DNA from: a virus
Taxonomy: Duplodnaviria; Caudoviricetes
DNA: 64,000 nucleotides
IMG/VR virus record: IMGVR_UViG_3300032281_000616
Location: 96,001-160,000 of that record
Reading direction: 5' to 3' (one strand)
A program made the position numbers and the translations under genes. This document shows, in pieces, positions 39,899-60,532 of this stretch. Under the pieces are notes generated by a model, which saw only the letters and a list, made by a program, of their open reading frames with translations, was not told the DNA's origin and ran no database searches. Each line of letters starts with the position of its first letter. Positions within the stretch are counted from its first letter, which is position 1.

Positions 39899-39939
39899 AG
39901 GGGCATCGATCATTACAACCGATGCCCCTTCCTAGTGTT

Positions 39940-40161
39940 TCAACTCCAGAGGAGTTCGTTGAGTTCGAACTGGTCAACCTTGCGCACGTTGCAGGCAGCG
40001 GCGGACCTCCTTTGTTGCGGGCTCCAAGGCTTAGGGCCGAAGGCATCATGGAAAGCCTCCTCTTCACTGTCACCATGCCCTAGTAGGCACTGGCGTTTGA
40101 GATACGCGGAGCGTTTGGTGATGACATAGGCGGCGGTATCAGGCGTTAATGTGGTGGACAT
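39940..40161 (-). CDS. Small GC-rich hypothetical protein
   Basis: Motif promoter with N6-ATG; TGA stop overlaps the next motif. Confidence 0.75.
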   Translation of the reverse strand: MSTTLTPDTAAYVITKRSAYLKRQCLLGHGDSEEEAFHDAFGPKPWSPQQRRSAAACNVRKVDQFELNELLWS

Positions 40162-40584
40162 GATTGAATTCTATTCTAGTGTTTCAAACGGAAAGGGGTG
40201 GCCTCGCGGGGAATCGAACCCTCATAATCTGTCCGGGGGTAGCTATTCCCCATCTCCACCTCACGCTTGCAATCGCTGGCGGTTGATTATGTTTTTCCTA
40301 GCCCTCTTCAAGGGCTACCCGCACCGAGCGGAAAAGGCATTTAAGCTACTTACATCCTATCTTAGTGTTTCATCCGCTGGGTGGCTTCGTCACTCTCCTT
40401 GGCAATGACTAGCAAGTGGAGTAAAAAGGAACGGGTGAACTATCGCCACCCAGCGGCATCATCATTCTGCTCTAGTGTTTCATCCTCTGAAGCACTTTCG
40501 AAAGCTCTTAGAATCGCTTCCAAGCTCTCGAAAGTGCCGCCCCTTGTCCGGGTTAGGGACAAGGGGCGGGAAGGGCTTGGAGGG

Positions 40585-41085
40585 TTATTCCGCTGCGGTT
40601 GCGGGGGCGGTTGCAGTCGCCACCATTGCGGCAATCGCATCTTCAGACAATCCAAGGGCCGCGCCATACTTACGAATTTGAGCAACCAACCCATCGATGG
40701 TCGGCGTCTTGCTAACGGTTTCAGAATAGTCGCGAACCTTAATCGCTTCCCATGCCTCCCCGATCAAATCCTTGGTTTCGAAAACAGGGTTGCCGTCCTC
40801 ATCCAAGGCTTGCACCTCAACAGCTTCCCCATCGACTTCGACCGATTCCATCACTGGCACGGTTTTGAAGCGGCGATCCGTTGCGACCTTGTAAAGCACC
40901 TCAAAGCACTCTTTTTCAGACATAGGGATGGGAGGGGCCTTGGCAACGGCAGCGGGGCGGGTGAAGCCCTTGCGGAGTTCAGTGGCCTCATTTTTGAGGT
41001 TTTCTGTGATTCCGAACGTGAATTGAACGGGCTTCTTAGCAGTTGCGGTTGGGGCGGCGATAGGGGTAGTAGTGGTGGTTTGCAT
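40585..41085 (-). CDS. Ala/Thr-rich hypothetical protein
   Basis: 166 aa, GC-rich codons, motif promoter at 41104. Confidence 0.75.
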   Translation of the reverse strand: MQTTTTTPIAAPTATAKKPVQFTFGITENLKNEATELRKGFTRPAAVAKAPPIPMSEKECFEVLYKVATDRRFKTVPVMESVEVDGEAVEVQALDEDGNPVFETKDLIGEAWEAIKVRDYSETVSKTPTIDGLVAQIRKYGAALGLSEDAIAAMVATATAPATAAE

Positions 41086-41193
41086 AACGTCTATATTCTA
41101 TCTTAGTGTTTTATTCGACTTGCTTCTTTCGAGAGCTTCCCGCATCCTTTCTGGTAGGATGAACCATTTCGTGCTTTCATTCTGTCCTAGTGT

Positions 41194-41274
41194 TTAATGC
41201 TCTTTGCTTTCGAGGTAGGCATCCAATAGGGCATCGTTCTTTTCGGTGGAGTCGGTGGGAATCATGATGATCAT
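41194..41274 (-). CDS. Micro-ORF (26 aa)
   Basis: MIIMIPTDSTEKNDALLDAYLESKEH; bracketed by motifs at 41292 and 41188; stop lies inside the motif. Confidence 0.55.
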   Translation of the reverse strand: MIIMIPTDSTEKNDALLDAYLESKEH

Positions 41275-41437
41275 GCCCCTTCATTCTGCTCTAGTGTTTC
41301 AACGACCCACTCACCCGCTTTTTTCATTCCCTTATGTATAGGATGGGAATCGGGGGCGTTTTCTAAATATACGGCGAAACAAATCAGGAGAATTATGGCG
41401 GAAAGATATTTCATCCCCTCTATTCTATCCTAGTGTT

Positions 41438-41605
41438 TTATCGTTTCTTGAAGTCCGAAAAACCAATCATAAGACTCCAAAAGTGAATCCACTTCTTAAT
41501 CTTAGCAATTCTGGTCTTATTCAATACTCTCACAGTCTTATTTACTGGAGTCAAAGTATCATAGTACCTACCAGAGATCTTATCTGTATAGTTGATGGGT
41601 TTCAT
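41438..41605 (-). CDS. Micro-ORF (55 aa)
   Basis: MKPINYTDKISGRYY...; motif at 41624; TAA inside the motif at 41431. Confidence 0.65.
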   Translation of the reverse strand: MKPINYTDKISGRYYDTLTPVNKTVRVLNKTRIAKIKKWIHFWSLMIGFSDFKKR

Positions 41606-42068
41606 GGTAAACTAATTCTACCCTAGTGTTTTATAAACAATTTTAGCGGAAGAAATCATGATAATTTTCCGCTTGCGTTCTTTAGGATATGTTTTTTTAT
41701 CAGTATGGTTGAAAGACCCGAGATTGTTGAAAAGGCATCGAACCTTTATTAGTATCATTTCATTTATCTAGTTTGTTACAGTAACTTTCTGCTTGGGAAT
41801 GTTATAGCAGTCTCCCTTCTCTATCTTATCAGGAATCATTATCATGGAGGCAGTTCAGTGAACCTTATCCCCGCTTATAGTAAGAGGATCTTTTAAGACA
41901 ATATTATTTAGTCTGGTGATCGTATTTTTATATATAAGAAAGTGTGTCCCCCTCCCGTTCCATCACCACATATTCATCGGGAGGGGGACTGTTTACCACC
42001 ACAGTAAATGTTTTATTAGATCATGGCAAGTTTGTCAGATCAATAAAGTTATTAAATTGATAAAGTTA

Positions 42069-42170
42069 TCATGACAAACTCCTATAGAGATTGTATAACT
42101 CTTCTCGATGCCATTCATCGATATACAATTCTCTATCCAATCTTATCCTCAACCATTCTTTCAGTCGCAT
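42069..42170 (-). CDS. Micro-ORF (33 aa)
   Basis: GAACACTA-GCG-TAGACT-N6-ATG; MRLKEWLRIRLDRELYIDEWHREELYNLYRSLS. Confidence 0.55.
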   Translation of the reverse strand: MRLKEWLRIRLDRELYIDEWHREELYNLYRSLS

Positions 42171-42295
42171 GTCCTTAGTCTACGCTAGTGTTCTATTGAT
42201 ATATTCCAGTGCAAGTTTTCTACCACACTTTGATCAATCTGTCAAATCAACTTTTTTATTAGATTGATTTAATTGTCAGATCAAAGTAATAATAG

Positions 42296-42523
42296 TTATG
42301 ATTCAAAGGTATCTACGATCATATTGTAGAACTTACAGGCGAATTCCTCATCAGATTTGATACCCGGAAGATTACATATCTTCCATGATTTTTCCTCGAT
42401 AAGATTTTCTATAGTAACAGAACTAGTATTACCTACAATCAAACCGAGATACTTCAGTTCATTCTCAGTAAGTTCAAGGGTAAAAATACGCTCAGATGGA
42501 GGAGTAATATTAGTAATTTTCAT
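42296..42523 (-). CDS. Hypothetical protein
   Basis: Motif promoter with N6-ATG. Confidence 0.75.
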   Translation of the reverse strand: MKITNITPPSERIFTLELTENELKYLGLIVGNTSSVTIENLIEEKSWKICNLPGIKSDEEFACKFYNMIVDTFES

Positions 42524-42544
42524 AGTGTTATTCTAGGTTAGTGT

Positions 42545-42847
42545 TTATTGCTTAGAACCCCATGCCAAGAGTTCCTGATAGGTTTCAAACTCGTAAATCT
42601 TAACATTACCTTCATCATTGAGCATCTTCATACATTCTTGAAGAGTCTCAGTTCCTTCAGAATACCAGTTATTACCCTCAGTCATAGAGAAAAAGAATTT
42701 GGGTTTGAATGATAGTTTACCCATATCATCAGATGCAATATATCCCGGATAGTTATCAGATGAAATGAATCCATAATACTTCATGGAATTCACCTCTTTA
42801 ATATCTACAACGGACTTACTTTGCTCCTCAAAAATTACAGTCTTCAT
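42545..42847 (-). CDS. Hypothetical protein, paralogue of 42968-43261
   Basis: Shared EVNS.K.YGF...TEGN.W...YxFxTxxEL..W pattern. Confidence 0.75.
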   Translation of the reverse strand: MKTVIFEEQSKSVVDIKEVNSMKYYGFISSDNYPGYIASDDMGKLSFKPKFFFSMTEGNNWYSEGTETLQECMKMLNDEGNVKIYEFETYQELLAWGSKQ

Positions 42848-42884
42848 ATACGTTTATTCTATTCTAGTGTTCTATAAGAAAAAG

Positions 42885-42946
42885 AAACCCTCTCTGAGTC
42901 ATGATGAAAAACAAACGGCATTTGTTAATATACTCAGAGAGGGTTT
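42885..42946. terminator. 15-bp inverted repeat (terminator-like, 32-nt loop)
   Basis: AAACCCTCTCTGAGT ... ACTCAGAGAGGGTTT. Confidence 0.6.
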
Positions 42947-42967
42947 TACACCACCATGATGCAAACT

Positions 42968-43261
42968 TTATTCAGCCAACCAAGTAAACAATTCTTTAGA
43001 AGTATCGAATTGATATACTGTGAAGTTTTTATTCAAAAGATTTTCGATTGTACCTTGAAGATTACTTCGTGAATGTGAAGGCCATGAATTTCCTTCAGTC
43101 AATTCTGTAATGGCTTTCATTTGATAATTTCCACCACCATAACTCACTCTTGAAATAAATCCTTTTGAATTTGTATGATTCTGAACAAACCCATAAAATT
43201 TATACGAATTCACTTCTGATACATTTACTGTATCCCGACTTGTATTGATCACTTCTTTCAT
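42968..43261 (-). CDS. Hypothetical protein, paralogue of 42545-42847
   Basis: Same shared pattern as its paralogue. Confidence 0.75.
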   Translation of the reverse strand: MKEVINTSRDTVNVSEVNSYKFYGFVQNHTNSKGFISRVSYGGGNYQMKAITELTEGNSWPSHSRSNLQGTIENLLNKNFTVYQFDTSKELFTWLAE

Positions 43262-43300
43262 ATATTCTTGTATTCTTTGAATTTCTTTGTTTCGTTGGAT

Positions 43301-43888
43301 TTAGATATTCTCAGCCAACTTAATGAGTTCTTTTACCGTATCCAGAGGAATAGTTTGGCATCCTACCACAACCTTATCCTCATAAACCTTGGCTGTATAC
43401 TCATCGGAGATCTTCAGTTCCTTATATTCTCCGAGTGGGGTGACACTCTCGAATGGTACACATACACCACTATCAGTACAAACTACACAGAACTCATGGG
43501 TTTTAAGATAATCATGAACTAAATCAGATTTATTGCTTGTTGATTCCTTGGATACCAAAACAACATTCTTAACCTTTATATGGGCAAATGAACCATTAAC
43601 ATAGGATACCTTTTTACCAATAAGTTTGGTGGCTGCTTTGAATTGTTTCATATAGTCTGGTTCAGAACTTACCAGTTCAAACTTATCATCATCCCACCAA
43701 GAACGATCATTACCCTTAGAATCGACAATATGGATGTCTCTTCCATTACTACCGATTTCATTGATTGTATATGTTTCACTTACATCATAATCGAATGATC
43801 CATAATGCTTAGGGAGTAGTTTTACTTTGTATCCGATTTTCAAGCCTGCTGGTGTTGTTGTTTTTTCTTTCATTGTGATGATATTCAT
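43301..43888 (-). CDS. Hypothetical protein; C-terminus shared with 43893-44420
   Basis: YTAKVYEDKVVVGCQTIP. Confidence 0.75.
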   Translation of the reverse strand: MNIITMKEKTTTPAGLKIGYKVKLLPKHYGSFDYDVSETYTINEIGSNGRDIHIVDSKGNDRSWWDDDKFELVSSEPDYMKQFKAATKLIGKKVSYVNGSFAHIKVKNVVLVSKESTSNKSDLVHDYLKTHEFCVVCTDSGVCVPFESVTPLGEYKELKISDEYTAKVYEDKVVVGCQTIPLDTVKELIKLAENI

Positions 43889-43892
43889 AGTT

Positions 43893-44420
43893 TTATGACA
43901 ATTTCTTATGTAATTCTACAATTTCTTCTACCTTGGACCAAGGGATGAATTGGCATCCTACTTTAATGAAATCTTTCTCCACAATAGCTTCATAATCTCC
44001 CACATCCTTAACAATGTTTGATACAATAGTTAGTTGGTTTACTGGGATGACTAAATCATTGGTCATTCTGAGGGCTACAGAAAAGCCATTCCTTTTAATA
44101 TCATCAGTGACTAAAGCGGATGATCTATTAGTAGGTTTGGTAAAGATTTCGATACTTTCTGGAGTGTATGTATCAATAAACATAGTAACAATCTTACCAG
44201 ATTGAAGAATGTCATAAGCCTTATTTACTAATTCTTTCATAGTTTCGGGCTTATCAACAACTTCAAATCTAACAGTGAAGAATGATTCATCGGTTCCTTC
44301 TACAAAAAGAAGTTCATCGTCTTCATCATCATAACGATCAAATGTATAAATTTTATCAGCAACCAATGCGAAGTTGGGGTTGATACAACGAATCTTATCA
44401 CCTTTCTTTATATTTTTCAT
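43893..44420 (-). CDS. Hypothetical protein
   Basis: YEAIVEKDFIKVGCQFIP; N-terminal KKGDKIRCI. Confidence 0.75.
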   Translation of the reverse strand: MKNIKKGDKIRCINPNFALVADKIYTFDRYDDEDDELLFVEGTDESFFTVRFEVVDKPETMKELVNKAYDILQSGKIVTMFIDTYTPESIEIFTKPTNRSSALVTDDIKRNGFSVALRMTNDLVIPVNQLTIVSNIVKDVGDYEAIVEKDFIKVGCQFIPWSKVEEIVELHKKLS

Positions 44421-44427
44421 ATGTTGA

Positions 44428-44619
44428 TTAGTATGAGAAGTTTTGTGAGAGGGAAGTAGTCACTCCATTAGTCTTAAAGATAGGAGTTGATCTTGAGCTA
44501 AGGGAACGCTTGATAGAAATGGCACCTTTCTTAGGCTTAGAATATACCATTTGAACCCATGATGTACGAAGCATCTTTTGTGGGGCGCGGAAGTCTGATT
44601 TGTTATTGTTGCTGGACAT
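44428..44619 (-). CDS. Small basic protein
   Basis: Motif promoter with N6-ATG. Confidence 0.6.
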   Translation of the reverse strand: MSSNNNKSDFRAPQKMLRTSWVQMVYSKPKKGAISIKRSLSSRSTPIFKTNGVTTSLSQNFSY

Positions 44620-44647
44620 GCTCTGATTCTAGGTTAGTGTTTGATTA

Positions 44648-44974
44648 TTAAAGATTTGCATCGAATCCATCGCATCCGATAACATTACCCTTATCATCTC
44701 TGATAAGATTACCGGGAGACAATAGATCTTTTCTTGCTGGTGCTGCCATCTTTACCAAGGTTGATACGATATAATAAGTATCATCGACTTGATCCGGTAG
44801 ATCCATGACATCTCCCACTGTATTCTTATAGATAGGAATATTCATGATACTGCAAAGTTCGTGTCTTTGCATATTAACTCTTGGAACCGGATAAGACTTA
44901 TCAGGATCAATCGACATCTTGAAATCTTTTGAGATGATATTGATCGTGTGAGGTGTAAGATTGATGAACTTCAT
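44648..44974 (-). CDS. Hypothetical protein (INLTPH family)
   Basis: Motif sets the start at MKFINLTPH; YYIVS, DLLSPG.LIRD..G.VIGC. Confidence 0.75.
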   Translation of the reverse strand: MKFINLTPHTINIISKDFKMSIDPDKSYPVPRVNMQRHELCSIMNIPIYKNTVGDVMDLPDQVDDTYYIVSTLVKMAAPARKDLLSPGNLIRDDKGNVIGCDGFDANL

Positions 44975-44999
44975 GTCAGTATTCTGCTTTAGTGTTTCA

Positions 45000-45302
45000 T
45001 CAGAGGATTTTCTTGAGAGCACTGAGGAATCTCTTTCCTGAATTACCAGATTTATTCATAATAAATAAACCAGAATTTAGGGCTGCGATTGCACCAATTC
45101 CGCCACAATCAGTTCCCCAGATACTTCCACCCTTCAAAGGAACCATTGAAAGCAAGTGATAGTATTCCCCATCACACTCCACTAACTTATCCATATCGTT
45201 TGGAGTAAATGACTTATGAATAGATATCACCCTATCATTCTTGATATTGATATTCCATCCATACTTTTCACATTCTGATTTGAAGTCTTGTGGGGTGATC
45301 AT
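45000..45302 (-). CDS. Hypothetical protein
   Basis: Motif promoter with N6-ATG; TGA abuts the next motif. Confidence 0.75.
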   Translation of the reverse strand: MITPQDFKSECEKYGWNINIKNDRVISIHKSFTPNDMDKLVECDGEYYHLLSMVPLKGGSIWGTDCGGIGAIAALNSGLFIMNKSGNSGKRFLSALKKIL

Positions 45303-45350
45303 GTTTATATCTTAGGCTAGTGTTTCATGAATACTTAACTCTATTTTTCA

Positions 45351-45509
45351 TTATTCTTGAGAGAATTTATCAATCATCCTACGATACTTTTTCTTTTCCC
45401 TACGCATCGTGCGCTTTTTGGTAGCATTACTACCAACATCGAAACAATCATCGTAATCTTTTTTCCCAGAGTGAATATGAGAACGACTATAATAATTTCG
45501 AACTTGCAT
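45351..45509 (-). CDS. Micro-ORF (52 aa, basic)
   Basis: Motif promoter with N6-ATG; MQVRNYYSRSH...KKRTMRREKKKYRRM. Confidence 0.6.
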   Translation of the reverse strand: MQVRNYYSRSHIHSGKKDYDDCFDVGSNATKKRTMRREKKKYRRMIDKFSQE

Positions 45510-45585
45510 GTCAGTATTCTACTTTAGTGTTTCATCTATCCCAACTCAGGGTAGTTTAATGAGATACCCTAGCTCATTGTTTTGA

Positions 45586-47115: not shown

Positions 47116-47164
47116 AAGTGGTGGTTTCTCGTTACGTCCCTATTCTAGGCTAGTGTTTCATCAA

Positions 47165-47871: not shown

Positions 47872-47893
47872 TGTGGTGATTTATTATTTTGAA

Positions 47894-48006
47894 ATCAAGT
47901 GATAGGACTCGAACCTATAATAATGCCGGTTGTGACGATGCGCTCGGGACAGTGCTATTTTACGCTTATCCTATTACTCACTTACCAGTGTGTCTGCCAC
48001 ACTTAA
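47894..48006 (-). ncRNA. 113-nt tRNA-like RNA
   Basis: Acceptor TTAAGTG/CACTTGA; T arm ATAGG-TTCGAGT-CCTAT; oversized non-canonical interior. Confidence 0.5.
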
Positions 48007-48080: not shown

Positions 48081-48350
48081 TCACTTCATAGGGACAAGAA
48101 GAGTAATCATTTGCTCATCCCCATCTTCATCCTTAACATAGAGATTGGTTCCATCGAATGCGATATCTCCACAATCCTTCATAAAGACCAGACTGAATGA
48201 ATTATTATCGTCTTCCCAATCAAATTCCAACCACCAATCTTCATCATTAGAATCTTCCCATGATGGATAAACCAGAACATTATCATCGATAACGCAGGCA
48301 GAACAATCTTGAATAAGTTTAAGTGCTTCGGCTTGTGTGATGTTTATCAT
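48081..48350 (-). CDS. Small acidic hypothetical protein
   Basis: Motif promoter at 48369. Confidence 0.7.
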   Translation of the reverse strand: MINITQAEALKLIQDCSACVIDDNVLVYPSWEDSNDEDWWLEFDWEDDNNSFSLVFMKDCGDIAFDGTNLYVKDEDGDEQMITLLVPMK

Positions 48351-48375: not shown

Positions 48376-48630
48376 TCAACGATACAAGTAGCGATCAGTA
48401 TCATCAGGAAAATCCGAAATGACACAATTATAAAGTTGTTCATCTAAGAAAACATCCATAATAAGTTCGATCTTATTATTAGACAAATGAGGTTCTTCCA
48501 ACTTTGTCTTGATATATTCAAGAGCATTTTCTCTTGTAAATCTTAGTGTTGAGTGTGCGCCCATATTATTGTGTTCTTGTTTTACCTTTGGTAATCTTCG
48601 GACCACCTTCATTGTATCCGGTCCAAGCAT
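48376..48630 (-). CDS. Hypothetical protein (start probably internal)
   Basis: TGA inside the motif at 48369. Confidence 0.6.
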   Translation of the reverse strand: MLGPDTMKVVRRLPKVKQEHNNMGAHSTLRFTRENALEYIKTKLEEPHLSNNKIELIMDVFLDEQLYNCVISDFPDDTDRYLYR

Positions 48631-48814
48631 TCTGAGATTTATGAACCTTTAGTTCTTCATCGGGTAATGCTTCCCTGATTTCAAACCATTTATATTGTTT
48701 AAGATTAGATTTTTTCAAAGCATTCATATAGTTTTCACACTTATGCTTTGCATTCGTTTCCAACCTGACCATCTTTTTCTTGGATTTACCAGCAAGTAAT
48801 GTATAAAGTTTCAT
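48566..48814 (-). CDS. Small basic hypothetical protein
   Basis: ATGA-coupled to the upstream ORF. Confidence 0.6.
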   Translation of the reverse strand: MKLYTLLAGKSKKKMVRLETNAKHKCENYMNALKKSNLKQYKWFEIREALPDEELKVHKSQNAWTGYNEGGPKITKGKTRTQ

Positions 48815-49080
48815 CTTTCGTATTGAGGAAATTGTTCTTTGAATGCTTTATAATGTGTCCAATAACCTGATCCTTTTGATGGTGGAAGTTCTTTTCCAAT
48901 ATCAAAAGTTATTGCATAGAAGGTTTCATCTTTGAATAAATCAGATGGACAAGTCCAAACTTGGCGCATGATTCCATTCACTTCCATATTACAATCAAAT
49001 TCCCAATGTTTCATATTAGTCTTGTTTGTAATATCTCCTAGCATTAACTTTCTTATTAAATCCTCTCCATCCTCCACCAA
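48811..49080 (-). CDS. Hypothetical protein (start probably internal)
   Basis: Coupled to the downstream ORF. Confidence 0.55.
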   Translation of the reverse strand: MVEDGEDLIRKLMLGDITNKTNMKHWEFDCNMEVNGIMRQVWTCPSDLFKDETFYAITFDIGKELPPSKGSGYWTHYKAFKEQFPQYER

Positions 49081-49228
49081 CTCTTACAAAGTATTTGTAA
49101 TCAGGATAATCTTTAGGATGATCAAGAGACATAATACCATTCTCGGTGGAATGATCGAAATCACGAAGTTTCCAATCTTCTACAAAGAAACCAGAATCAT
49201 TAGGATCAATTTGATAGTCTCGAAGCAT
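49016..49228 (-). CDS. Hypothetical protein
   Basis: Motif promoter with N6-ATG. Confidence 0.7.
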   Translation of the reverse strand: MLRDYQIDPNDSGFFVEDWKLRDFDHSTENGIMSLDHPKDYPDYKYFVRVGGGWRGFNKKVNARRYYKQD

Positions 49229-49249
49229 GAGAGTATTATGGTTTAGTGT

Positions 49250-49540
49250 TCAATAACACCGATCAGGATGCCATCCGCGAGGATAACGCTCGATGAGTTT
49301 AATTTCATCAATCAAATAACCGTCTTCTTCTGTATATCTAAACTTAACAACCCCATCAACTTCAACCCTAGCTTCGACAGGAAAATCCTTTCGATCACAT
49401 CCAAAACCTTCATGGATTAAACTTTGATAGACACATTTAGCCGCATACTCAGAATGGTGAGTATCTTCTGATTTATTTTCAGATGATTCACTCCAACCTA
49501 ATCGAATTTCTCTTGGCCATACTAGAATGCTTTTGATCAT
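49250..49540 (-). CDS. Hypothetical protein
   Basis: Motif promoter with N6-ATG; stop inside the next motif. Confidence 0.72.
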   Translation of the reverse strand: MIKSILVWPREIRLGWSESSENKSEDTHHSEYAAKCVYQSLIHEGFGCDRKDFPVEARVEVDGVVKFRYTEEDGYLIDEIKLIERYPRGWHPDRCY

Positions 49541-49561
49541 GTTACTATTGTGGTTTAGTGT

Positions 49562-49747
49562 TTAATACTTTCCAACTTGCCACATAAGAACATCAAATCC
49601 TGCTAATTGATATTTCAAACGCTTCTTATTAGCTTTATCAATATCCTTAATAAAATGTTTCTTATGAAGCACGGGTTCACCAGTTTTCCAAGACCAAACC
49701 ATAATCTGATACTTACCAATATGTTTGTCTTTATTCATAAGATTCAA
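49562..49747 (-). CDS. Hypothetical protein
   Basis: Stop inside the motif at 49556. Confidence 0.62.
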   Translation of the reverse strand: MNLMNKDKHIGKYQIMVWSWKTGEPVLHKKHFIKDIDKANKKRLKYQLAGFDVLMWQVGKY

Positions 49748-49959
49748 TTCCTTTCACATGAGATAATTAATTCAGCTTTATGTCCTCTATATGGATCAGA
49801 TGAAAGGTAATCATGAAGTTCGGAAGAATATCCATCCCACATAATACCTATACTTTGTCGATCAATTCTATTCAAGATTTTATCTATAGCTTCTTCCACC
49901 ACACTTTCAGAAACATCTCCACAATACATAGATACTTCGATAGTTATTTTCTTACGCAT
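49744..49959 (-). CDS. Hypothetical protein
   Basis: ATGA-coupled to the downstream ORF. Confidence 0.6.
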   Translation of the reverse strand: MRKKITIEVSMYCGDVSESVVEEAIDKILNRIDRQSIGIMWDGYSSELHDYLSSDPYRGHKAELIISCERN

Positions 49960-49970
49960 ATTGATTTATT

Positions 49971-50189
49971 TCATTGTTCAACTTTCACAAATGCAGATTC
50001 CCAATGACCAAATGCACCGAAAGAAGTATCCATAGGAGCCATCCAAGGTTGATTATGTTCAGAGATAAGAACCCAAAGAGGAAAATCTGGTAATTTTTGA
50101 AGGGTGTAAAGACAGCATACGGGTGTATCTTTTTTATAAAGGAATTGATCACCGGACTTCATCGGAGTGTATTGATTGACCGTTTGCAT
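49971..50189 (-). CDS. Hypothetical protein
   Basis: Motif promoter with N6-ATG. Confidence 0.7.
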   Translation of the reverse strand: MQTVNQYTPMKSGDQFLYKKDTPVCCLYTLQKLPDFPLWVLISEHNQPWMAPMDTSFGAFGHWESAFVKVEQ

Positions 50190-50925: not shown

Positions 50926-50947
50926 GTCCTTAGTTTACTCTAGTGTT

Positions 50948-51656: not shown

Positions 51657-51670
51657 ACCCTTAGTTTATT

Positions 51671-52351: not shown

Positions 52352-52747
52352 TTAATAATGACGATAACCATCAGAGTCAAACTTCACACCCAATTCGTCT
52401 GTGGCGTATTGTTCTATGTCGTGACTAATTTCTGAAAGCATATTAGAAACTCTTTCTCTCATATCTTCCAACTTTTCCAATATCGGTTTACCGTGAATCA
52501 ATTCTCTCAACATCAAAGCGGCTTTTTTCTCAACGTCTTTGTTATAACTATCACATAAATTATTGAAGAAATAAGCAATAGGAATGACATGTCCACCAAT
52601 TTTCAATTCACAATCAATTCCTTCATGTCCATCATCATAAACGTTTTTATAAATCTTATCAAATCCACTACCCACAGAAACCTCTGCAAAAGCATTTGCT
52701 AAGATGATAGATACTGGAGAATGTTTAGTTAAAGAAATTTTTTCCAT
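52352..52747 (-). CDS. Hypothetical protein
   Basis: Motif promoter with N6-ATG; stop inside the next motif. Confidence 0.75.
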   Translation of the reverse strand: MEKISLTKHSPVSIILANAFAEVSVGSGFDKIYKNVYDDGHEGIDCELKIGGHVIPIAYFFNNLCDSYNKDVEKKAALMLRELIHGKPILEKLEDMRERVSNMLSEISHDIEQYATDELGVKFDSDGYRHY

Positions 52748-52761
52748 GAGACTATTATGGT

Positions 52762-53082: not shown

Positions 53083-53235
53083 TTCAAATGCTTATTAGCA
53101 TCCGCGACTCATCAGATAACGTTACCATTATCACGAGGATTTACCCACATTGCTTTATCAGAATCACCCGACTTCATCATAGGCTTATATCAACCCCTAC
53201 TAGTTATTGATTAAATAACGTGGATGTTTAAAATG

Positions 53236-53310: not shown

Positions 53311-53328
53311 ATTAAAATCTATTACTAT

Positions 53329-53565: not shown

Positions 53566-53751
53566 AGTCTTATTATACTTTAGTGTTTTATGTGACCATT
53601 CTCTTTCAGATATCTAATGATAGCATCTTGGTCTGACTTTGTGTAATATCTTTTCAGTTTTCGTCTAGTTTGAATTGTATCCAAACCTTTGTATGAATTG
53701 ACAAAGGATTCATGGAATACTAAACCTTTGATGACAACACTCACAATAAAA

Positions 53752-53827
53752 TGGTCCTCCTAACCAGATTCGAACTGGTAACTAACGGTTTATGAAACCG
53801 CTACTCTGACCGTTGAGTTATAGGAGG
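53752..53827 (-). tRNA. tRNA-Ile2 (CAT), putative lysidine substrate
   Basis: CCTCCTA/TAGGAGG-A-CCA; GCGGT-TTCATAA-ACCGT; lies directly downstream of tilS. Confidence 0.82.
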
Positions 53828-53832
53828 ATATA

Positions 53833-54444
53833 TTACAAATAAAATTTCTTTAATACGACTTTCTCCAACCCTCTTCGTTCTTCGATTTTAGGAAGGATTT
53901 CATTTCTAATCCAGTTTCTTTCATATTTACTATCTGAATTGGTTTCATCAACTACTACATATCCAGATAATCCTCTTTTATCAACCCAATCCTCTAAATT
54001 AGATTTACTGTTTTTAATAAAAGGTCGCAGCAAAGTAAAATTATCAAACTCACTAATTTGTTGAATCGGTTTATATTCTGGACAACCTTTTAGACAATTC
54101 ATAATATACTGTTCAACACAATCACCTAGATGATGACAGACTATAATTGATTCACCAATCTCATCGAAGAAACTTAATCTCTCTTGTCTCAAATTATCTT
54201 CAATGTTCTTAGTGTATTTTACGCGACATTCACCAATTGTCAAATGAATTTTGTAGTCATCACAAAACTTTCGACAAACATCAACCATCTTTAGATTCTG
54301 TTCTCTTTGATTATGATTGAAGTGGATAGCTTTGAAATTATAACCTAATGTTAAAAGAAGATGAGAGCATGCTAAACTATCAACTCCACCAGAGATAGCA
54401 ACCGAAAATTGCTCAGGAATGATTTTTCTATTGATATGAATCAT
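53833..54444 (-). CDS. tilS: tRNA(Ile)-lysidine synthetase
   Basis: VAISGGVDS PP-loop, HFNH, HHLGD..E, LLRPF, VDETN....YERNWIR; true start MIHINRK (the ORF-track extension lies in the tRNA duplicate). Confidence 0.88.
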   Translation of the reverse strand: MIHINRKIIPEQFSVAISGGVDSLACSHLLLTLGYNFKAIHFNHNQREQNLKMVDVCRKFCDDYKIHLTIGECRVKYTKNIEDNLRQERLSFFDEIGESIIVCHHLGDCVEQYIMNCLKGCPEYKPIQQISEFDNFTLLRPFIKNSKSNLEDWVDKRGLSGYVVVDETNSDSKYERNWIRNEILPKIEERRGLEKVVLKKFYL

Positions 54445-54459
54445 TATTGTATGAGATAG

Positions 54460-55193
54460 CCGCACCCGGACTCGAAAATACACTTTTAGACTAAATAGTA
54501 TTATGAAGATGCTTAATTGTGATAGGTGTAATGAAGAATTCGAAGTTTCATATGACCAATGGAAGAATCGGAGGAGTAAAAAGAAAATCCATAATAGGAA
54601 TAATTATTGTTCGCTGGAATGCAGATTATTGGGACAAGGAAAAAGCCCAAGAATAGAAGTTTCGTGTGAAAGTTGTGGTTGTTTTTTTATGAAACATTAT
54701 AGCGAGGTTACGAGAACCCCTAAAAATTTTTGTTCTAGATCTTGCTCTGCTACATATAACAACACTCACAAAACAAAGGGTAATCGCAGAAGTAAGTTAG
54801 AAAAATGGTTAGAAGAACAATTAACTGTGTTATATCTAGAACTAGAAATTCTATATTCGAACAAAACCACCATTAATTCTGAGCTTGATATTTATATACC
54901 ATCCCTAAAATTAGCCTTTGAACTTAATGGAATATTCCATTATGAACCAATATATGGTGAAGATAAGCTAAATCAAATCCAAAACAATGATAATAGAAAA
55001 TTTCAGGCTTGTTTAGAGAAAGGTATCGAATTATGTATTATCGATACTTCTCAACACAAATACGTTAAGCCTTCTACTTCACAAAAATATCTTGATATTA
55101 TCACACATTTAGTTAACTCTAAATTAGAGTCATCCAAAACAGACTACGTGGAAGTAGTGTGATTTCCTGTTTCTGACCGCACCCGGACTCGAA
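54460..55193. repeat. 17-bp direct repeat of the tRNA-Leu 3' end flanking an endonuclease gene
   Basis: CCGCACCCGGACTCGAA at 54460-54476 and 55177-55193. Confidence 0.88.
54503..55162 (+). mobile_element. Zn-finger plus PD-(D/E)xK-like putative homing endonuclease
   Basis: CxxC...YCSLEC, CxxC...FCSRSC, ELDIYIPSLKLAFELNGIFHY; own late promoter at 54492. Confidence 0.78.
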
Positions 55194-55292
55194 CCGGGAA
55201 GCCTTTCGGCGGCAGATTTTCGACAAGGTATAATATATTTCACTTATACCCTATTAGAAAGTCTGCGATGTTTACCTTTTCATCATACGGCC
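55174..55292 (-). tRNA. tRNA-Leu (TAA) with a 38-nt insertion in the anticodon
   Basis: GGCCGTA/TGCGGTC-A; GCAGA-CTT[38 nt]AAAA-TCTGC; variable arm GCCGAAAGGC; CCCGG-TTCGAGT-CCGGG. Confidence 0.8.
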
Positions 55293-55304
55293 ATTGATTT
55301 TTAG

Positions 55305-55472
55305 TTATCCTACATATTCTTCAGTGTCAATATCAATCAATTCATTGTCGTAAACTGATCCATCCTCTTCATTGAATACACATTCCATATCCATGATCTT
55401 ATCATTGAGATCATCTTCATCTTCAGCATTGATAAAGACATTAAATTTCATTGTTACGATGTATTGCTTCAT
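55305..55472 (-). CDS. Micro-ORF (55 aa, very acidic)
   Basis: Motif promoter with N6-ATG; MKQYIVTMKFNVFINAEDEDDL... Confidence 0.65.
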   Translation of the reverse strand: MKQYIVTMKFNVFINAEDEDDLNDKIMDMECVFNEEDGSVYDNELIDIDTEEYVG

Positions 55473-55497
55473 GTCAGTAGTTTACTTTAGTGTTTCA

Positions 55498-55869
55498 TCA
55501 ATCAAAATCGAATCCAAGAAGAAAATACCAATTTCCGATCTTAGCTTCTCTCAATCCACCCCTAGAAAATTCATATCCAATTTGGGAATCATATACATAA
55601 TCCCAATCATCTGGTCTATAACCTTCACAACAAGCGAAGACTGGATATGATTCGTAATAGTCCTCTCTAGCTCCCATCTTATTATTGATCTCTCCTAGAG
55701 AGTATGGAGATGATGGTTTGGATGATTTAATCCTTTCAGCTATTTCATCTGCTTTCTTATAGATCTCATCAGCGATAGGTTGATATTCTTTAGGCCAACC
55801 TTTACGTGATTGATAATGATTATAATCATGAACCCATTGAGGGAAATCAGATATTGTTCTGAAGTTCAT
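55498..55869 (-). CDS. Hypothetical protein
   Basis: TGA abuts the motif at 55488. Confidence 0.7.
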   Translation of the reverse strand: MNFRTISDFPQWVHDYNHYQSRKGWPKEYQPIADEIYKKADEIAERIKSSKPSSPYSLGEINNKMGAREDYYESYPVFACCEGYRPDDWDYVYDSQIGYEFSRGGLREAKIGNWYFLLGFDFD

Positions 55870-55870
55870 A

Positions 55871-56194
55871 TCAAAAGATTTGGTTCAACATATCCATAAC
55901 TCTTTCCTTGAGCCTAACATCCCAACCGGGAACTCTATTGATTCTTTTTGTTTTAAGGATACCTTTGTTTGTTACTGTATTAACCGCACATATCCTGACA
56001 GCATCAGTACCGCACTTCTTCGATACACCATTAGGAGAAATTGAAGAGTAAACAAATAGACTGATATTTGGATTCTTTTTAGTTTGATAAGCGTATACAT
56101 ATTCATTACCCTTAATGGTTTTGCTCCAGCCTTTATCATGCTTTAGAAGAGCATCCATTTCCAATTCTGTAATAGTGCAATAAGTAGCAGCCAT
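55871..56194 (-). CDS. Hypothetical protein
   Basis: Motif promoter with N6-ATG; GTDAVRI...KRINRV.GW. Confidence 0.75.
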   Translation of the reverse strand: MAATYCTITELEMDALLKHDKGWSKTIKGNEYVYAYQTKKNPNISLFVYSSISPNGVSKKCGTDAVRICAVNTVTNKGILKTKRINRVPGWDVRLKERVMDMLNQIF

Positions 56195-56219
56195 ATTAGG
56201 ATTGTGAGTTAGTGTTTCA

Positions 56220-56561
56220 TCAGTTTTCTTTAACGTCTTTCAATCCAAGAATAAACATAAAAGCGCACACGATTCGAGTGGCGAATTTAGCGAATCCTTC
56301 CACATAAAACATATCAAATACAGATAGACTACCAGACCTGATAGCCCATGAGTATCCAATAAGACCAACAATCATACCTAAGACATATCCTAGACCGTTT
56401 CTAGTATGTCCAAGGATTAAATAAGCACCACCAAGACCACTAATGAATCTTAGGCATGTACCAAAGCCTCCCAGACTAAAATCCAAGAAACACCCAAAAG
56501 CCAAAAATAGTAATCCAATAATGATTCGAAATCCACCTAAAATATTTATTATTGAATTCAT
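56220..56561 (-). CDS. Multi-pass membrane protein
   Basis: About four hydrophobic helices. Confidence 0.7.
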   Translation of the reverse strand: MNSIINILGGFRIIIGLLFLAFGCFLDFSLGGFGTCLRFISGLGGAYLILGHTRNGLGYVLGMIVGLIGYSWAIRSGSLSVFDMFYVEGFAKFATRIVCAFMFILGLKDVKEN

Positions 56562-56575
56562 AATTATACAACCCC

Positions 56576-56612
56576 GAGGGGTTTAGTAGGGATAGAACCT
56601 ACTAAACCCCTC
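56576..56612 (-). terminator. 15-bp hairpin, terminator-like
   Basis: GAGGGGTTTAGTAGG-N7-CCTACTAAACCCCTC. Confidence 0.65.
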
Positions 56613-56622
56613 CATCCCACCT

Positions 56623-57039
56623 TTAGACGCCGATTTCCACCACAGTCTCGACATCTGAATCATCAGAACTTCCTGATACTTCTGCCTTAAGTTGTGCAGT
56701 AAGTTCAGCCAACTTCTTACGAAGACGCTCTTGCTTCTTAGCTTCCTTAGCAGCAGCCTTTTCTTCTTCTGTAAGAACCACCTTCTCAACCTTAACCTTC
56801 TTAGCAAGATTAAGACCATCTACCACGATGGCAAAGGTATCCACTTCTTGTGGATCACCATTATCATCAGGCATAAGCCCTACTTGATTGTTGAATGCTA
56901 CTTCTAGGAGAAGAGTGATTACACCTTTATCAGTAAGGTTATAATCTTCCTTCAACTTTTGAAGTGTTGCCTTTTGTTCTTCGCTAACATTCACTACGAC
57001 TTGTTTAGCGACCGACTTCTTTTCTGTTTCAGTTTCCAT
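56623..57039 (-). CDS. Hypothetical protein with an E/K-rich helix
   Basis: Motif promoter with N6-ATG. Confidence 0.75.
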   Translation of the reverse strand: METETEKKSVAKQVVVNVSEEQKATLQKLKEDYNLTDKGVITLLLEVAFNNQVGLMPDDNGDPQEVDTFAIVVDGLNLAKKVKVEKVVLTEEEKAAAKEAKKQERLRKKLAELTAQLKAEVSGSSDDSDVETVVEIGV

Positions 57040-57068
57040 ACCGTTATTTTAGTTTAGTGTTTAATCGT

Positions 57069-57266
57069 TTATTTTCCTACCGTGAAAGCAATGATTAGAG
57101 CAATCGCAATGATCAACAGAACCAAAGCAAAGCTAATCCAAATGGGGGATAGAACCCACCACCATGACCATGCAATATATCCCGTAAGTTTTAGGCCAAT
57201 GAAAAGCACAGTCAAAAGACCTACAAATCCAATGCCTCCAGATGATGTTGTAGTATTATTACTCAT
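57069..57266 (-). CDS. Small membrane protein (GIGF.GLL...LKLTG.I.WSWWWVL.PIW family)
   Basis: Recognisable phage membrane motif; motif promoter with N6-ATG. Confidence 0.78.
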   Translation of the reverse strand: MSNNTTTSSGGIGFVGLLTVLFIGLKLTGYIAWSWWWVLSPIWISFALVLLIIAIALIIAFTVGK

Positions 57267-57287
57267 ATTGTTATTTTATTCTAGTGT

Positions 57288-57806
57288 TTAATCAATATAT
57301 TCTTCAGGATTATCCTTATAAGCTTGTTCCATATCAGACTCTTGTTTCTTAGTAAACCAATCCATCATATAAAGACCAAGAGCATCCCTAAGAGCAGGGA
57401 TAAATCCATTGTGTTTGGAATATTCTTTAAAATCAGAAGATGGTGGTTCCCAATAACCATAAGATTCATACGTTTCGTAACCAACTTCGAACTTTAAGAA
57501 GTTTTCTGATGCGATTACAATCACACCATCCAAAGATAGACCATAGGGAGTGTCATAAGACATAAAAGAATTCTCAACCCTTTCGAATTGACCAAATTTC
57601 TCATTAATAGATTTCAGAAATCCGTTGAATGATTTACGAACACTTTCACAATACGAGATATTACGAAGGATGTTTCGAACTTCTGATTCAGTTCCCACAC
57701 CATAAGTAAGTTCAGCATCATGCCAATCTTTATCAGGTGTTTTTACTAGAAGGTTTTCCCAACTACAATCATCTTCTAGGATAGTCTCAACTTTGAACTC
57801 GATCAT
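57288..57806 (-). CDS. Acidic hypothetical protein
   Basis: Motif promoter with N6-ATG; stop inside the next motif. Confidence 0.75.
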   Translation of the reverse strand: MIEFKVETILEDDCSWENLLVKTPDKDWHDAELTYGVGTESEVRNILRNISYCESVRKSFNGFLKSINEKFGQFERVENSFMSYDTPYGLSLDGVIVIASENFLKFEVGYETYESYGYWEPPSSDFKEYSKHNGFIPALRDALGLYMMDWFTKKQESDMEQAYKDNPEEYID

Positions 57807-57828
57807 GGTGTGAGTTTATGTTAGTGTT

Positions 57829-58362
57829 TCATCCTTCAACGTCTTCCGGTATATCAAGGATATTATCAGCCTTGATGGTGAAGCATAGAGGACGATCTTC
57901 ATCAGTAGGACTAAGAAGTTTCTTAGCTTCTGATGGGGGAAGATACTCAGCAAACTTAGCCTTATCAACAATCTCACCGTTTACATAATACACAGACTTT
58001 GGAATATGATTATTAGCTTGGGATGGATAAAGACGAAGATAAAGATTATCCTTATGTTCGATGACATGAGGAAACCATGATTTCTTTGTCAATTTGTCCA
58101 CATACCACGACCCCCATGGTAGTTCACCAACTTCACCACGTTCACCAGATGCAATTCCTTCCTTCACAGCAGAAAGATTAGCATAATTTACACCAGCTTG
58201 CACCACGGCAACTGTGTGTTTCTCAAGGATAACACCTTCTTTCTTAAAAGAAGCAGCAGGTGTAGGATTGCTTTTCCATGATGCTTTTACAAATTGACCC
58301 TTACAAGAAAGGATTTTGTTGCGAATAGCTTCAGCACTTAGGGGATTAGTTGTCGTTGTCAT
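57829..58362 (-). CDS. Hypothetical protein
   Basis: Motif promoter with N6-ATG; stop inside the next motif. Confidence 0.78.
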   Translation of the reverse strand: MTTTTNPLSAEAIRNKILSCKGQFVKASWKSNPTPAASFKKEGVILEKHTVAVVQAGVNYANLSAVKEGIASGERGEVGELPWGSWYVDKLTKKSWFPHVIEHKDNLYLRLYPSQANNHIPKSVYYVNGEIVDKAKFAEYLPPSEAKKLLSPTDEDRPLCFTIKADNILDIPEDVEG

Positions 58363-58384
58363 ATCGTTAGTATATCTTAGTGTT

Positions 58385-58612
58385 TTATTGATACTTTGTA
58401 ATTAGTGGATGTTGATTAGTAAACTTATATGTTTTACCTTCCCAACCACGAATCTTTTGACCTTGCTCATTATAGAAATGAGAGATAGATCCATTGGTTG
58501 AAGAGATGATCATATTAGTAGTTTTACGAGCAGATTGAATCTTCTGATCGAAATCCTTTGTGGTTAGTTTATAGAATAGATTGATTAGTTTTTTCATATT
58601 AAAAATCTCCAC
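58385..58612 (-). CDS. Hypothetical protein
   Basis: Stop inside the motif at 58378. Confidence 0.6.
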   Translation of the reverse strand: MEIFNMKKLINLFYKLTTKDFDQKIQSARKTTNMIISSTNGSISHFYNEQGQKIRGWEGKTYKFTNQHPLITKYQ

Positions 58613-58913
58613 TTTCAGAAAACCGTAGTTGGAATTCTCTCAACATGCTTTCTCTTTTGGGTGTCATTTCACCTTTCCAGATTGGAAATAGTTTACAATC
58701 TTCGTCTTGTGCAACCAACACATGACAGGTCCATGATACATTATAGACTGGGATATTACACACACCATCATCCCAATCGTACCAATCATCCCCATCACTC
58801 ATATATAAAAAACATGATGGCATATCATAAACATGATCTCCATCTAATCTAAATGCCTGTAAAGCTGGTCTTGTTTTATCAACTAATTTGATATACCAAT
58901 CGGGTGGTTTCAT
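58599..58913 (-). CDS. Hypothetical protein
   Basis: Motif at 58929 with N6-ATG. Confidence 0.7.
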   Translation of the reverse strand: MKPPDWYIKLVDKTRPALQAFRLDGDHVYDMPSCFLYMSDGDDWYDWDDGVCNIPVYNVSWTCHVLVAQDEDCKLFPIWKGEMTPKRESMLREFQLRFSESGDF

Positions 58914-58920
58914 ACTCTCA

Positions 58921-59175
58921 TTATTCGTTAGTGTTTAATAGATAATTAGATTCCATATCCATCACACCATCCGCTATCATAATACTAACGATAGCTGTAA
59001 AGGTTATTTCATTAAGAGGATCACTTGGTTTGATGATAGGATCTACAACTTTACCATCGATCACACTATATGTAGCCAAACCTTTGGGTATGATCTTACC
59101 TGATTCTACCTCATAGAAAACATCATGTAGAAAACCTACAGTATCATACATCTCAAAGTATCTATGAATATTCAT
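58921..59175 (-). CDS. Hypothetical protein
   Basis: 84 aa, packed with its neighbours. Confidence 0.62.
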   Translation of the reverse strand: MNIHRYFEMYDTVGFLHDVFYEVESGKIIPKGLATYSVIDGKVVDPIIKPSDPLNEITFTAIVSIMIADGVMDMESNYLLNTNE

Positions 59176-59176
59176 G

Positions 59177-59581
59177 TTAGTATTTTTCCTTTATGTATTT
59201 TTCTCCATCATAATACCACAAATTCTTATACCCAACGGCCCTTAAATTTCTTAGGCAATTCGAGCATGGTTTTGATATAGCGGTTTCTCCTAGATTATTG
59301 AGTCTCACATTCACAAAGGTTAGATGGAAACAATCCTCCAATCCAAGTCGAATCAAGGATGAAATTTCTGAATGCAATCCAGCCTTATAATTTCCTTGTG
59401 TTCTATTGGATTTGTATTGACCAAACTTATAGTATAAGTTTTGCTTATCATATGAATTATTACCAATGGTAATCAATTTAGATCCATGATATACGAAAGT
59501 TGTATGGAAACTCTTACCCGATTGATACAAAGGCTTCATCGCCCTAGTAATATCTTCTAAACGGGAGAAGTTAATTGCCAT
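59177..59581 (-). CDS. Zn-dependent cytidine/dCMP deaminase-fold protein
   Basis: HSE and SKPCSNC Zn motifs; IGNNS. Confidence 0.8.
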   Translation of the reverse strand: MAINFSRLEDITRAMKPLYQSGKSFHTTFVYHGSKLITIGNNSYDKQNLYYKFGQYKSNRTQGNYKAGLHSEISSLIRLGLEDCFHLTFVNVRLNNLGETAISKPCSNCLRNLRAVGYKNLWYYDGEKYIKEKY

Positions 59582-59602
59582 GAGTGTATCTTACTTTAGT
59601 GT

Positions 59603-60292
59603 TTACACAGTCAAAGCAAACCCAGTCTTATCAATCTTAGCATGACGCTTACCTTTCAAGGCAACGATGCAACCCTTCGGATCAAGAAACCTAAGATCAT
59701 GATCATCACCACTTACAATGCGCTTACCATTAAATTTCTTAGGTTGTTCACCATTAAAAACGATAGCAACATTTCCCTTACTTCCAAGAATAGCTTGACA
59801 CTTGAGGTCATTATCTTCCTTTCTAGAAAAGGTTAGATGATAATTTTTAGGAAGCTTCTTCTCCAAGAATTCTACCATACGATCAAAATCTGGAGTGTAA
59901 TCATAAAATTGAACATCATCAAACATCTCCATAAGAGTCATGCCGTTATGCTTAATCTTATGCCAAGGTAGATCACTCGTGAGATTCAATCTAAAACAAG
60001 GAGTAAGACCCTTCTTCAAAGACTTCTTGATAGCTGAAGAAATTTCCTTAATAAGTTGTTCCATGAACCCATTCTTATTAGTGAAGAAGTATTTTGTCTT
60101 ATTGATACGGGCTAATTGAACAGATGAATAAGCACCCATTCCAGCCGTATTCAAACACGCAGCACGACAACCAGCACTGGAATTCTTACAGACATTAAAA
60201 CCTGATAATTTTTCAGGAGCAAGATGGATACCAAATGTGAGATATCCAAGATCAAGAGACTTTTTTAATTTTGTGTTTGTGGTGAGAAGCAT
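59603..60292 (-). CDS. GP88-family protein (Cys-cluster, radical-SAM-like)
   Basis: VCKNSSAGCRAACL, FRLNLTSD, QFYDYT, YHLTFS, GDDHDLRFLD. Confidence 0.75.
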   Translation of the reverse strand: MLLTTNTKLKKSLDLGYLTFGIHLAPEKLSGFNVCKNSSAGCRAACLNTAGMGAYSSVQLARINKTKYFFTNKNGFMEQLIKEISSAIKKSLKKGLTPCFRLNLTSDLPWHKIKHNGMTLMEMFDDVQFYDYTPDFDRMVEFLEKKLPKNYHLTFSRKEDNDLKCQAILGSKGNVAIVFNGEQPKKFNGKRIVSGDDHDLRFLDPKGCIVALKGKRHAKIDKTGFALTV

Positions 60293-60313
60293 GTCTAAAT
60301 TATACCTTAGTGT

Positions 60314-60532
60314 TTAACCAAATCTTTTCTTAAAATATGTGTATTGTCTTTTTGTATCTAAAATAATTTTAATGTTTATTCTAGGCATACGTCCAAAATT
60401 ATCTTCTTCGATATAATACTTGTAACCTTTCCGACCACAATAATACATTATACATGCAAACAGGTGTGGTTTATTCATCACACTATACATACAAATCACA
60501 GGATCAGGTGGAATATAAAATTTGGATTTCAT
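60314..60532 (-). CDS. Hypothetical protein
   Basis: Stop inside the motif at 60308. Confidence 0.6.
   Translation of the reverse strand: MKSKFYIPPDPVICMYSVMNKPHLFACIMYYCGRKGYKYYIEEDNFGRMPRINIKIILDTKRQYTYFKKRFG

Follow-up and report, generated by a model that had tools for sequence, protein, structure and literature searches.

The early-gene array and its repeated element

The stretch of DNA analysed here, referred to as the window, comprises 64,000 nucleotides (nt) of the virus record IMGVR_UViG_3300032281_000616 (IMG/VR) and corresponds to bases 96001–160000 of a genome of 202,205 base pairs (bp) in one contig, which carries direct terminal repeats, has a guanine-plus-cytosine (GC) content of 33.8% and received a completeness rating of 100%. 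The minus strand of the window holds an array of small early genes in which the motif AACACTA recurs at gene borders, often with the stop codon of the preceding open reading frame (ORF) lying inside or against it. An earlier note had read this arrangement as a possible cassette-shuffling system and the motif, called there an octamer, as a possible micro-recombination site. As described below, the motif is probably part of a compact early promoter, the stop triplets are letters of this element, and the breakpoints of gene gain and loss follow gene borders and not the motif as such.

The genome encodes a gp23-type major head protein (about 33% identity to its cyanomyovirus counterparts, the best level reached), rIIB, small proteins of the Kyanoviridae type, a UvrD-type helicase and many transfer RNAs (tRNAs). 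The source is therefore a distant T4-like myovirus, represented here by a complete genome, and its habitat is freshwater, the label carried by the metagenome runs with close relatives. Eight cassette proteins gave no match in a Pfam search, and a PHROGs search recognised only a homing endonuclease and a ferredoxin.

With 15 kilobases (kb) of the early region as query, no near match was obtained in the INPHARED phage collection; a scan of JGI metagenomes with the helicase returned only relatives at 29–70% protein identity, and the IMG/VR relatives are mutually distant. Exact matches to proteins of the window came only from another assembly of the present genome. Close relatives were reached via protein clusters with members of at least 90% identity, and four runs, all of them assembled contigs, were also compared. 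The sister phage (S), known from three assemblies, one each from JGI (contig, 138,985 bp), ENA (scaffold, 150,319 bp) and Logan (contig), is collinear with the present genome (Q) over about 56 kb, with a mosaic identity that varies gene by gene between 66 and 100%; 35 block junctions of this pair were inspected at the nucleotide level (identity 66–99.6%). A second sister pair (about 95% identity, 5 junctions) is formed by contig L120 and the more distant relative R1, which shares about 70% nucleotide identity with Q. L117, L118 and L119 are one sequence and L120 and L121 another, so that together these contigs add a single sister pair.

AACACTA occurs 54 times in the window, six-fold more than in dinucleotide shuffles (9.0 ± 2.9), none of which reached 54. 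Forty-six of these copies lie on the minus strand between positions 39095 and 62479, and the 76 minus-strand copies of the whole genome all fall within genome positions 130–200 kb, on the strand of the long block of small genes (Table 1). The same motif is kept, at about one copy per kb and on the gene strand, by relatives at only about 70% nucleotide identity.

Architecture of the predicted promoter

Alignment of the 76 copies yielded the consensus tgATdA-AACACTA-r-a-n-TAnAAT-N6-ATG. Relative to the first base of the motif, most copies present A at -4, T at -3 and A at -1, followed by a -10 hexamer and by an ATG at +22; in the hexamer, fixed at 6 nt before the ATG, T-12, A-11 and T-7 are nearly invariant. 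No conservation of a -35 hexamer 16–18 nt upstream of the -10 was seen among the 76 copies, and canonical -35/-10 promoters are not in excess (84 found, 81.8 expected from shuffles). The motif directly follows the coding end of the preceding gene. Terminator-like hairpins (11 in 20 kb, with 8.9 expected) are in no case paired with the motif, and Shine-Dalgarno-like sequences are scarce, preceding 4 of 49 promoter-led genes and 16 of 90 others.

This arrangement suggests that AACACTA is the upstream box (-22 to -16) of a compact early promoter of about 30 nt that would lack a -35 element. With the -10 hexamer at exactly 6 nt from the ATG, the predicted transcription start falls on the first base of the start codon (A), which would give a leaderless messenger RNA (mRNA). 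The motif is thus probably a compact early promoter yielding mRNAs that are probably leaderless, a prediction for both activity and start site. Nothing relevant was found in the literature on the octamer as a phage promoter or on leaderless early promoters of T4-like phages. The structural (late) genes on the plus strand are preceded by a different sequence, TAAATA-N5-ATG, also with no Shine-Dalgarno sequence (gene starts 1652, 2827, 6380, 7060, 7702, 10280 and 11947), which we take to be similar to the T4 late box; late transcripts may likewise be leaderless.

The constant distance between motif and ATG and the missing Shine-Dalgarno sequence could also be understood if the motif were not a promoter but an RNA-level signal (a translation enhancer or an endonuclease processing site) held at a fixed distance from the start codon. 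Such a role is extremely unlikely, as the downstream half of the motif is a textbook -10 hexamer, complete copies without an ATG at +22 are found in the GC-rich stretch at 40–42 kb and others ahead of the tRNA block, and the late genes have another box at a similar distance from the ATG, as two promoter classes would.

Several copies depart from the common arrangement. On the plus strand, complete copies of the AACACTA promoter at 22813, 24699 and 26425, in and around the tRNA cluster, indicate that this type is not limited to the minus-strand array. Window positions 40000–42000 form a GC-rich island (47% vs 34%) with complete promoter copies that have no ATG at +22 (motifs 40479, 40369 and 41194) and strong hairpins nearby, whose products may be small RNAs; this is also the stretch most diverged from the sister phage (66–77%), and it includes an insertion or deletion (indel) of 650 nt. 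At the low-coordinate end of the array an inverted motif pair (39834–39881; plus strand 39834, minus strand 39881) forms an imperfect palindrome beginning AAACACTAG. A double motif, AACACTA-N9-AACACTATG, is present at 42523–42545 and 62457–62479, where the heptamer recurs as the spacer from the -10 box to the ATG, and this form is kept in the sister phage.

Stop codons within the predicted promoter

The earlier note had listed at least 20 ORFs ending in or against the motif, and all 20 positions proved to be real minus-strand ORF ends, belonging to ORFs of 60–229 amino acids (aa). Relative to the first base of the motif, the stop codon starts at -6 in 4 of them (TGA-TGA-AACACTA), at -3 in 7 (TGA or TAA abutting the motif), at -2 in 7 (TAA or TGA overlapping the first A) and at +5 in 2 (CAC-TAG/TAA). 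Throughout the genome, an upstream stop falls within -6 to +12 at 34 of 60 promoter-type copies, and a like proportion was seen in five related contigs, with counts in relatives of 29/49, 24/47, 13/30 and 10/12. The broader statement that every unit consists of motif, promoter, gene and stop is true for about 60% of the array: within 39933–60317 it describes 27 junctions with a promoter and fails at 18 without one. These 18 are ATGA-type overlaps or gaps of 1–5 nt, like most non-promoter junctions between genes on the same strand; the gaps at promoter junctions are quantised (14, 21, 22, 25 and 28 nt).

The letters that form the stops were compared in 220 promoter copies from 7 contigs, 120 of them with an ORF end and 100 without. 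The respective frequencies were 0.88 and 0.94 for T at -3, 0.97 and 0.95 for A at -1, 0.78 and 0.80 for A at -4, 0.86 and 0.79 for a purine at +7, and 0.02 in both sets for C at -2. A gene-specific origin of these letters was rejected: they are equally frequent with and without an ORF end, and the stops are therefore intrinsic to the promoter and not made for the upstream genes. The observations favour compaction over gene-specific design, and on the matter of the stop codons the simpler alternative considered in the earlier note, genome compaction, is borne out.

All three reading frames are closed by 39 of the 60 promoter copies and at least two by all 60, whereas random sequence of the same composition closes three in 9%. 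The predicted promoter fills the whole intergenic space; its own conserved letters include T[GA]A (-6 and -3), TAA (-2), TAR (+5) and TAR/TAA (-10 box), stops that cover every frame, and an upstream ORF reads into it and is ended by these triplets. In L120, an ORF truncated by a deletion now ends at the TAA at -3 of the next motif, and in the sister phage the homologue of a 70-aa gene extends to a TGA abutting the motif, at the place where Q has a promoter-less insert. It is conceivable, if quite unlikely, that the promoter was selected as a universal plug-in interface, uniting in 30 nt a stop in three frames, a promoter and a leaderless start, its copies doubling as portable homology for an elevated trade of early genes. 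If so, any ORF placed between two copies would be terminated, transcribed and translated without a ribosome-binding site, and the array would be a leaderless analogue, free of stem-loops, of the promoter-early stem-loop (PeSL) elements discussed below, functionally convergent with integrons and without an integrase.

Gene-content changes between close relatives

A closer inspection of the junctions between Q and S showed, in a first group (class A), indels with both ends within promoter copies and in register. There are 4 exact and 2 probable cases, with flanking copies identical over 8–36 nt. Cases of DNA absent from the sister phage are listed in Table 1; the fourth exact case is a 734-nt insert of the sister between promoter copies identical over 32 nt, and the second probable one lies near 41262–41438. 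The loss of the cassette 42547–42840 is independently visible as a contig joint (42527>42854) with an 8-nt ambiguity, and the promoters flanking the block 45002–45499 (motifs 45525–45531 and 44990–44996) match at 35 of 36 positions. Of all 1770 promoter pairs, those at the borders of two variable blocks belong to the top 0.5% by Hamming distance and the top 0.4% by identical run, and adjacent promoters resemble each other more than random pairs do (permutation p=0.013).

Gene order is also altered in R1, where two neighbouring promoter-led genes are swapped with respect to Q, another is found elsewhere (Table 1) and a third, promoter-led only in Q, has its position shifted by about 6 kb; most of the displaced genes in this comparison are promoter-led. 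The high similarity of the flanking pairs and the swapped or moved genes of R1 are signs that promoter homology may matter in some events. The modular, in-register gain and loss of genes that had been proposed thus stands for the 4 exact and 2 probable indels, but not with the octamer as the crossover point, as crossovers occur anywhere in the 30-nt promoter.

The remaining changes followed other routes. In class B (four cases) a gene has been inserted between a promoter and its original gene, as seen for the 799-nt DNA-methylase insert (PF00145) of the sister at window 57263–57292. Class C (seven cases) comprises promoter-less inserts or replacements that meet the 5' edge of a motif on their downstream side and an ordinary gene end on their upstream side; between R1 and L120, four of the 5 junctions likewise have only the downstream end at a motif. 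Class D, at seven of the 35 Q–S junctions, consists of homing-endonuclease insertions, and the motif is not involved in the mobility of the endonuclease gene at 54460–55176. In class E (about ten cases) there is no motif, and the changes are clean whole-gene indels at ATGA/ATGAAAT overlaps, the loss of a tandem paralogue, intragenic deletions and in-gene replacements. The indels at motif-less ATGA/ATGAAAT junctions are as clean and in register as those at promoters.

Table 1. Positions in the window of the array, of a representative promoter and of the segments that differ between relatives.
Feature	Position	Strand	Remarks
Early-gene array, part within the window	39875–62479	-	46 AACACTA copies, about 40 of them in 39933–60317; array runs beyond the window end to about 199 kb of the genome
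Typical promoter unit	57263–57296	-	ttgATTA-AACACTA-gaa-TAAAAT-aacaat-ATG; first A of the motif shared with the TAA that ends the upstream 172-aa ORF
One cassette, 100-aa ORF 42545–42847	42547–42840	-	Absent from sister; paralogue of 42968–43261; crossover in 8-nt TAGAATAA common to both -10 boxes
Two-cassette block, promoter-led 52-aa and 100-aa ORFs	45002–45499	-	Absent from sister and from second-study contigs
One cassette, 131-aa ORF 52352–52747 and promoter	52356–52752	-	Absent from sister; flanking promoters with 20-nt identical run
650-nt block with four promoter copies	39886–40535	-	Absent from sister; probably motif-to-motif indel (motifs 40479 and 39881)
Neighbouring ORFs of 108 aa and 63 aa, both promoter-led	44428–44974	-	Order inverted in R1 (about 70% identical)
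Promoter-led 89-aa ORF	48081–48350	-	Opposite flank of the UvrD-type helicase gene in R1
Promoter-less three-ORF insert	48388–49019	-	Between end of 70-aa ORF and next motif; motif contact at the downstream end only
Promoter-less two-ORF insert, 48 aa and 89 aa	50948–51364	-	Between upstream stop and motif 50941–50947; sister has 93 nt there
Homing-endonuclease gene, ORF 54503–55162 (PHROG HNH/homing endonuclease)	54460–55176	+	17 nt of a tRNA 3' end duplicated; three other runs lack the gene
968 nt missing in sister	49154–50121	-	Both breakpoints within ORFs; no motif at either end
195-aa ORF, tandem paralogue of 43893–44420	43278–43870	-	Absent from sister; no motif at either end

Some further details of these segments could be observed. 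The sister methylase, of 274 aa (L109:11119-11943) and missing in Q, takes over the promoter of the next gene. tRNA-like 3' ends are present at three indel borders (54460–55176, 47889–47950 and 63989–64141): the 17-nt duplicate around the homing endonuclease is the T-arm/acceptor end of a tRNA, an end of the GGTTCGAG... type precedes a replaced segment, and a 12-nt repeat (ATGTTCGAA.CA) stands directly after a promoter at a tRNA-like border. Two pairs of tandem paralogues, 42545–43261 (97/100 aa) and 43301–44420 (195/175 aa), each lack one copy in the sister. At 59177–59581, a 134-aa promoter-led gene is 71% identical to the sister copy and both neighbours are 96% identical, a sharp allelic replacement of a single gene bordered by one promoter and one 1-nt gap. 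Inside the early array of a relative, beside rIIB and on the opposite strand, lies an IS605 OrfB/TnpB (Cas12f-like) gene (L117:4147-5313).

Distribution of breakpoints

The earlier note had proposed an alignment of relatives to see whether indel breakpoints fall on the octamer. The 22 whole-gene, non-endonuclease events (44 ends) were compared with a null given by the promoter share of gene junctions in the compared regions, and 23 of the 44 ends lie on promoter junctions vs 41% expected (binomial p=0.09, not significant). Promoters were present at both, one or none of the ends in 6, 11 and 5 events, vs 3.8, 10.7 and 7.6 expected. In the divergent comparison, gene neighbours are no longer adjacent in R1 at 28 of 38 promoter junctions, and likewise at 23 of the 30 junctions of other types (odds ratio 0.85, p=1). 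Sharp identity shifts between neighbouring genes of Q and S occur at promoter and other junctions alike. As the break frequencies are similar at the two kinds of junction, the breakpoints track gene borders, not the motif as such.

A dedicated cassette-shuffling system, in which the octamer would be a specific site of the integron attC/attI kind and a phage factor would excise and insert promoter-gene-stop units, could account for the self-contained units in register, the exact cassette indels, and the two swapped promoter-led neighbours of R1 together with the one moved across the helicase gene; since the promoter closes the reading frames, any ORF could plug in. This explanation is nonetheless very unlikely, and octamer-specific shuffling finds no support in the data. 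The crossovers are scattered over the -10 box, the spacer and the ATG rather than the octamer, motif junctions hold no significant excess of indel ends, many of the indels involve just one motif or none at all, and there is neither a structured attC-like site nor a stem-loop, all of which speaks against the octamer as a micro-recombination site. The genome search for a recombinase, also proposed in the earlier note, revealed that no tyrosine or serine recombinase is encoded: PF00589 (Phage_integrase) gave no match in this genome rated 100% complete, with 14 of 14 genomes found by the control search, and PF00239 (Resolvase) is absent from it as well, in a search that worked on control genomes. 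A RecA/UvsX homologue is encoded.

At the other extreme stands compaction alone, in which the promoter repeats would have no role in recombination, and illegitimate or endonuclease-driven indels would survive only where they respect gene borders, some of them running from promoter to promoter by chance. The distribution of promoter ends is near that expected, synteny breaks are equally common and identity shifts present at both junction types, and 11 events are bordered only by the 5' edge of a motif, as if the downstream promoter plus its gene were a conserved unit. Against this, two variable blocks lie between promoter copies whose pairwise similarity is in the highest 0.5%, with identities of 20–36 nt that reach non-consensus positions, adjacent promoters are more alike than random pairs, and recombination between promoter copies has been shown experimentally in other T4-type phages (PMC2839356). 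Compaction alone is thus regarded as unlikely.

Proposed origin of the array

The likely interpretation is a combined one, in which a compact, probably leaderless early promoter and genome compaction are accompanied by opportunistic homologous recombination of the PeSL kind. The region would be the hyperplastic early-gene block of a T4-like phage, and the promoter copies of about 30 nt are its longest dispersed repeats. General homologous recombination, with the RecA/UvsX homologue, would occasionally cross over between two of these copies and so delete, insert or move whole expressible genes in register, as PeSLs do. Homing endonucleases, illegitimate deletions within genes and short stretches of homology at ATGA start/stop overlaps contribute at least as much.

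Some points weigh against this interpretation. Promoter junctions are not significantly enriched in indel ends, and the promoter-to-promoter events could therefore be illegitimate events filtered by selection; none was found among the 5 junctions between R1 and L120. In addition, the gene calls come from a simple home-made caller and the junction classes were assigned by eye, and it is from sequence that we infer both the promoter activity and the leaderless start.

Comparison with known systems

The array resembles an integron in being a same-strand series of small, mostly unknown genes with a repeated element per border and with gain and loss of whole genes. It differs in having no integrase and no structured attC, the border element being a directional promoter with no excess of hairpins. 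In addition, each unit here has its own promoter, whereas integron cassettes are promoter-less, and the crossover positions vary.

T4 uses sigma-70 early promoters, middle promoters with a MotA box at -30 and late promoters with the sequence TATAAATA. Distinct promoter classes are likewise seen on this T4-like genome, with a late-type TAAATA box before the structural genes, but the early box is placed 3 nt from the -10 hexamer, not at -30/-35, its sequence is unrelated, and both classes stand at a leaderless distance from the ATG. The promoter may be the more interesting object, with its AAACACTA box beside the -10, no -35 and a predicted leaderless start, and the phage would be a natural test case for leaderless expression and for the factor that reads the box. 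The endonuclease insertions (7 of the 35 sister differences, some with short target duplications) recall the free-standing homing endonucleases (seg/mob type) of T4-like phages; they act without the motif and form a distinct source of changes in gene content, one that is at least as active.

In T4-type phages, PeSLs combine a repeated early promoter with a neighbouring stem-loop and flank ORFan genes; their recombination leads to the deletion, insertion or swapping of genes (Arbiol, Comeau & Krisch 2010, PMC2839356; Comeau, Arbiol & Krisch 2014, PMC4122927). Mapping placed their crossovers in the interval from the -10 box to the ATG or Shine-Dalgarno sequence, and mini-circles were detected by inverse polymerase chain reaction (PMC2839356). 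The array shares with them the repeated consensus early promoters before small ORFan genes of a T4-type hyperplastic region, indels of close relatives that have an element at each end and the crossover within it (4 clear and 2 probable of 35, none of 5 in the second pair), crossovers between the -10 box and the ATG, a probable reliance on general homologous recombination and some events with a single or degraded element. It differs from them in that there is no stem-loop or terminator half upstream of the promoter, no -35 and no Shine-Dalgarno sequence; the upstream box, at -23 to -16, is AAACACTA, and the mRNAs are predicted to be leaderless. The element, with a length of only about 30 nt, also runs over the stop codon of the preceding gene, and its association with indels is not above the gene-border background. 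The promoter-copy route accounts for about a fifth of the non-endonuclease gene-content changes, no commoner than the placement of promoters predicts, which tempers the idea that such repeats drive plasticity. The occasional use of promoter copies as crossover points would be a stem-loop-free variant of the known PeSL mechanism, and promoter-mediated modular shuffling, known from T4 relatives among coliphages and vibriophages, is thereby extended to a very distant, uncultured freshwater lineage with a minimal promoter.

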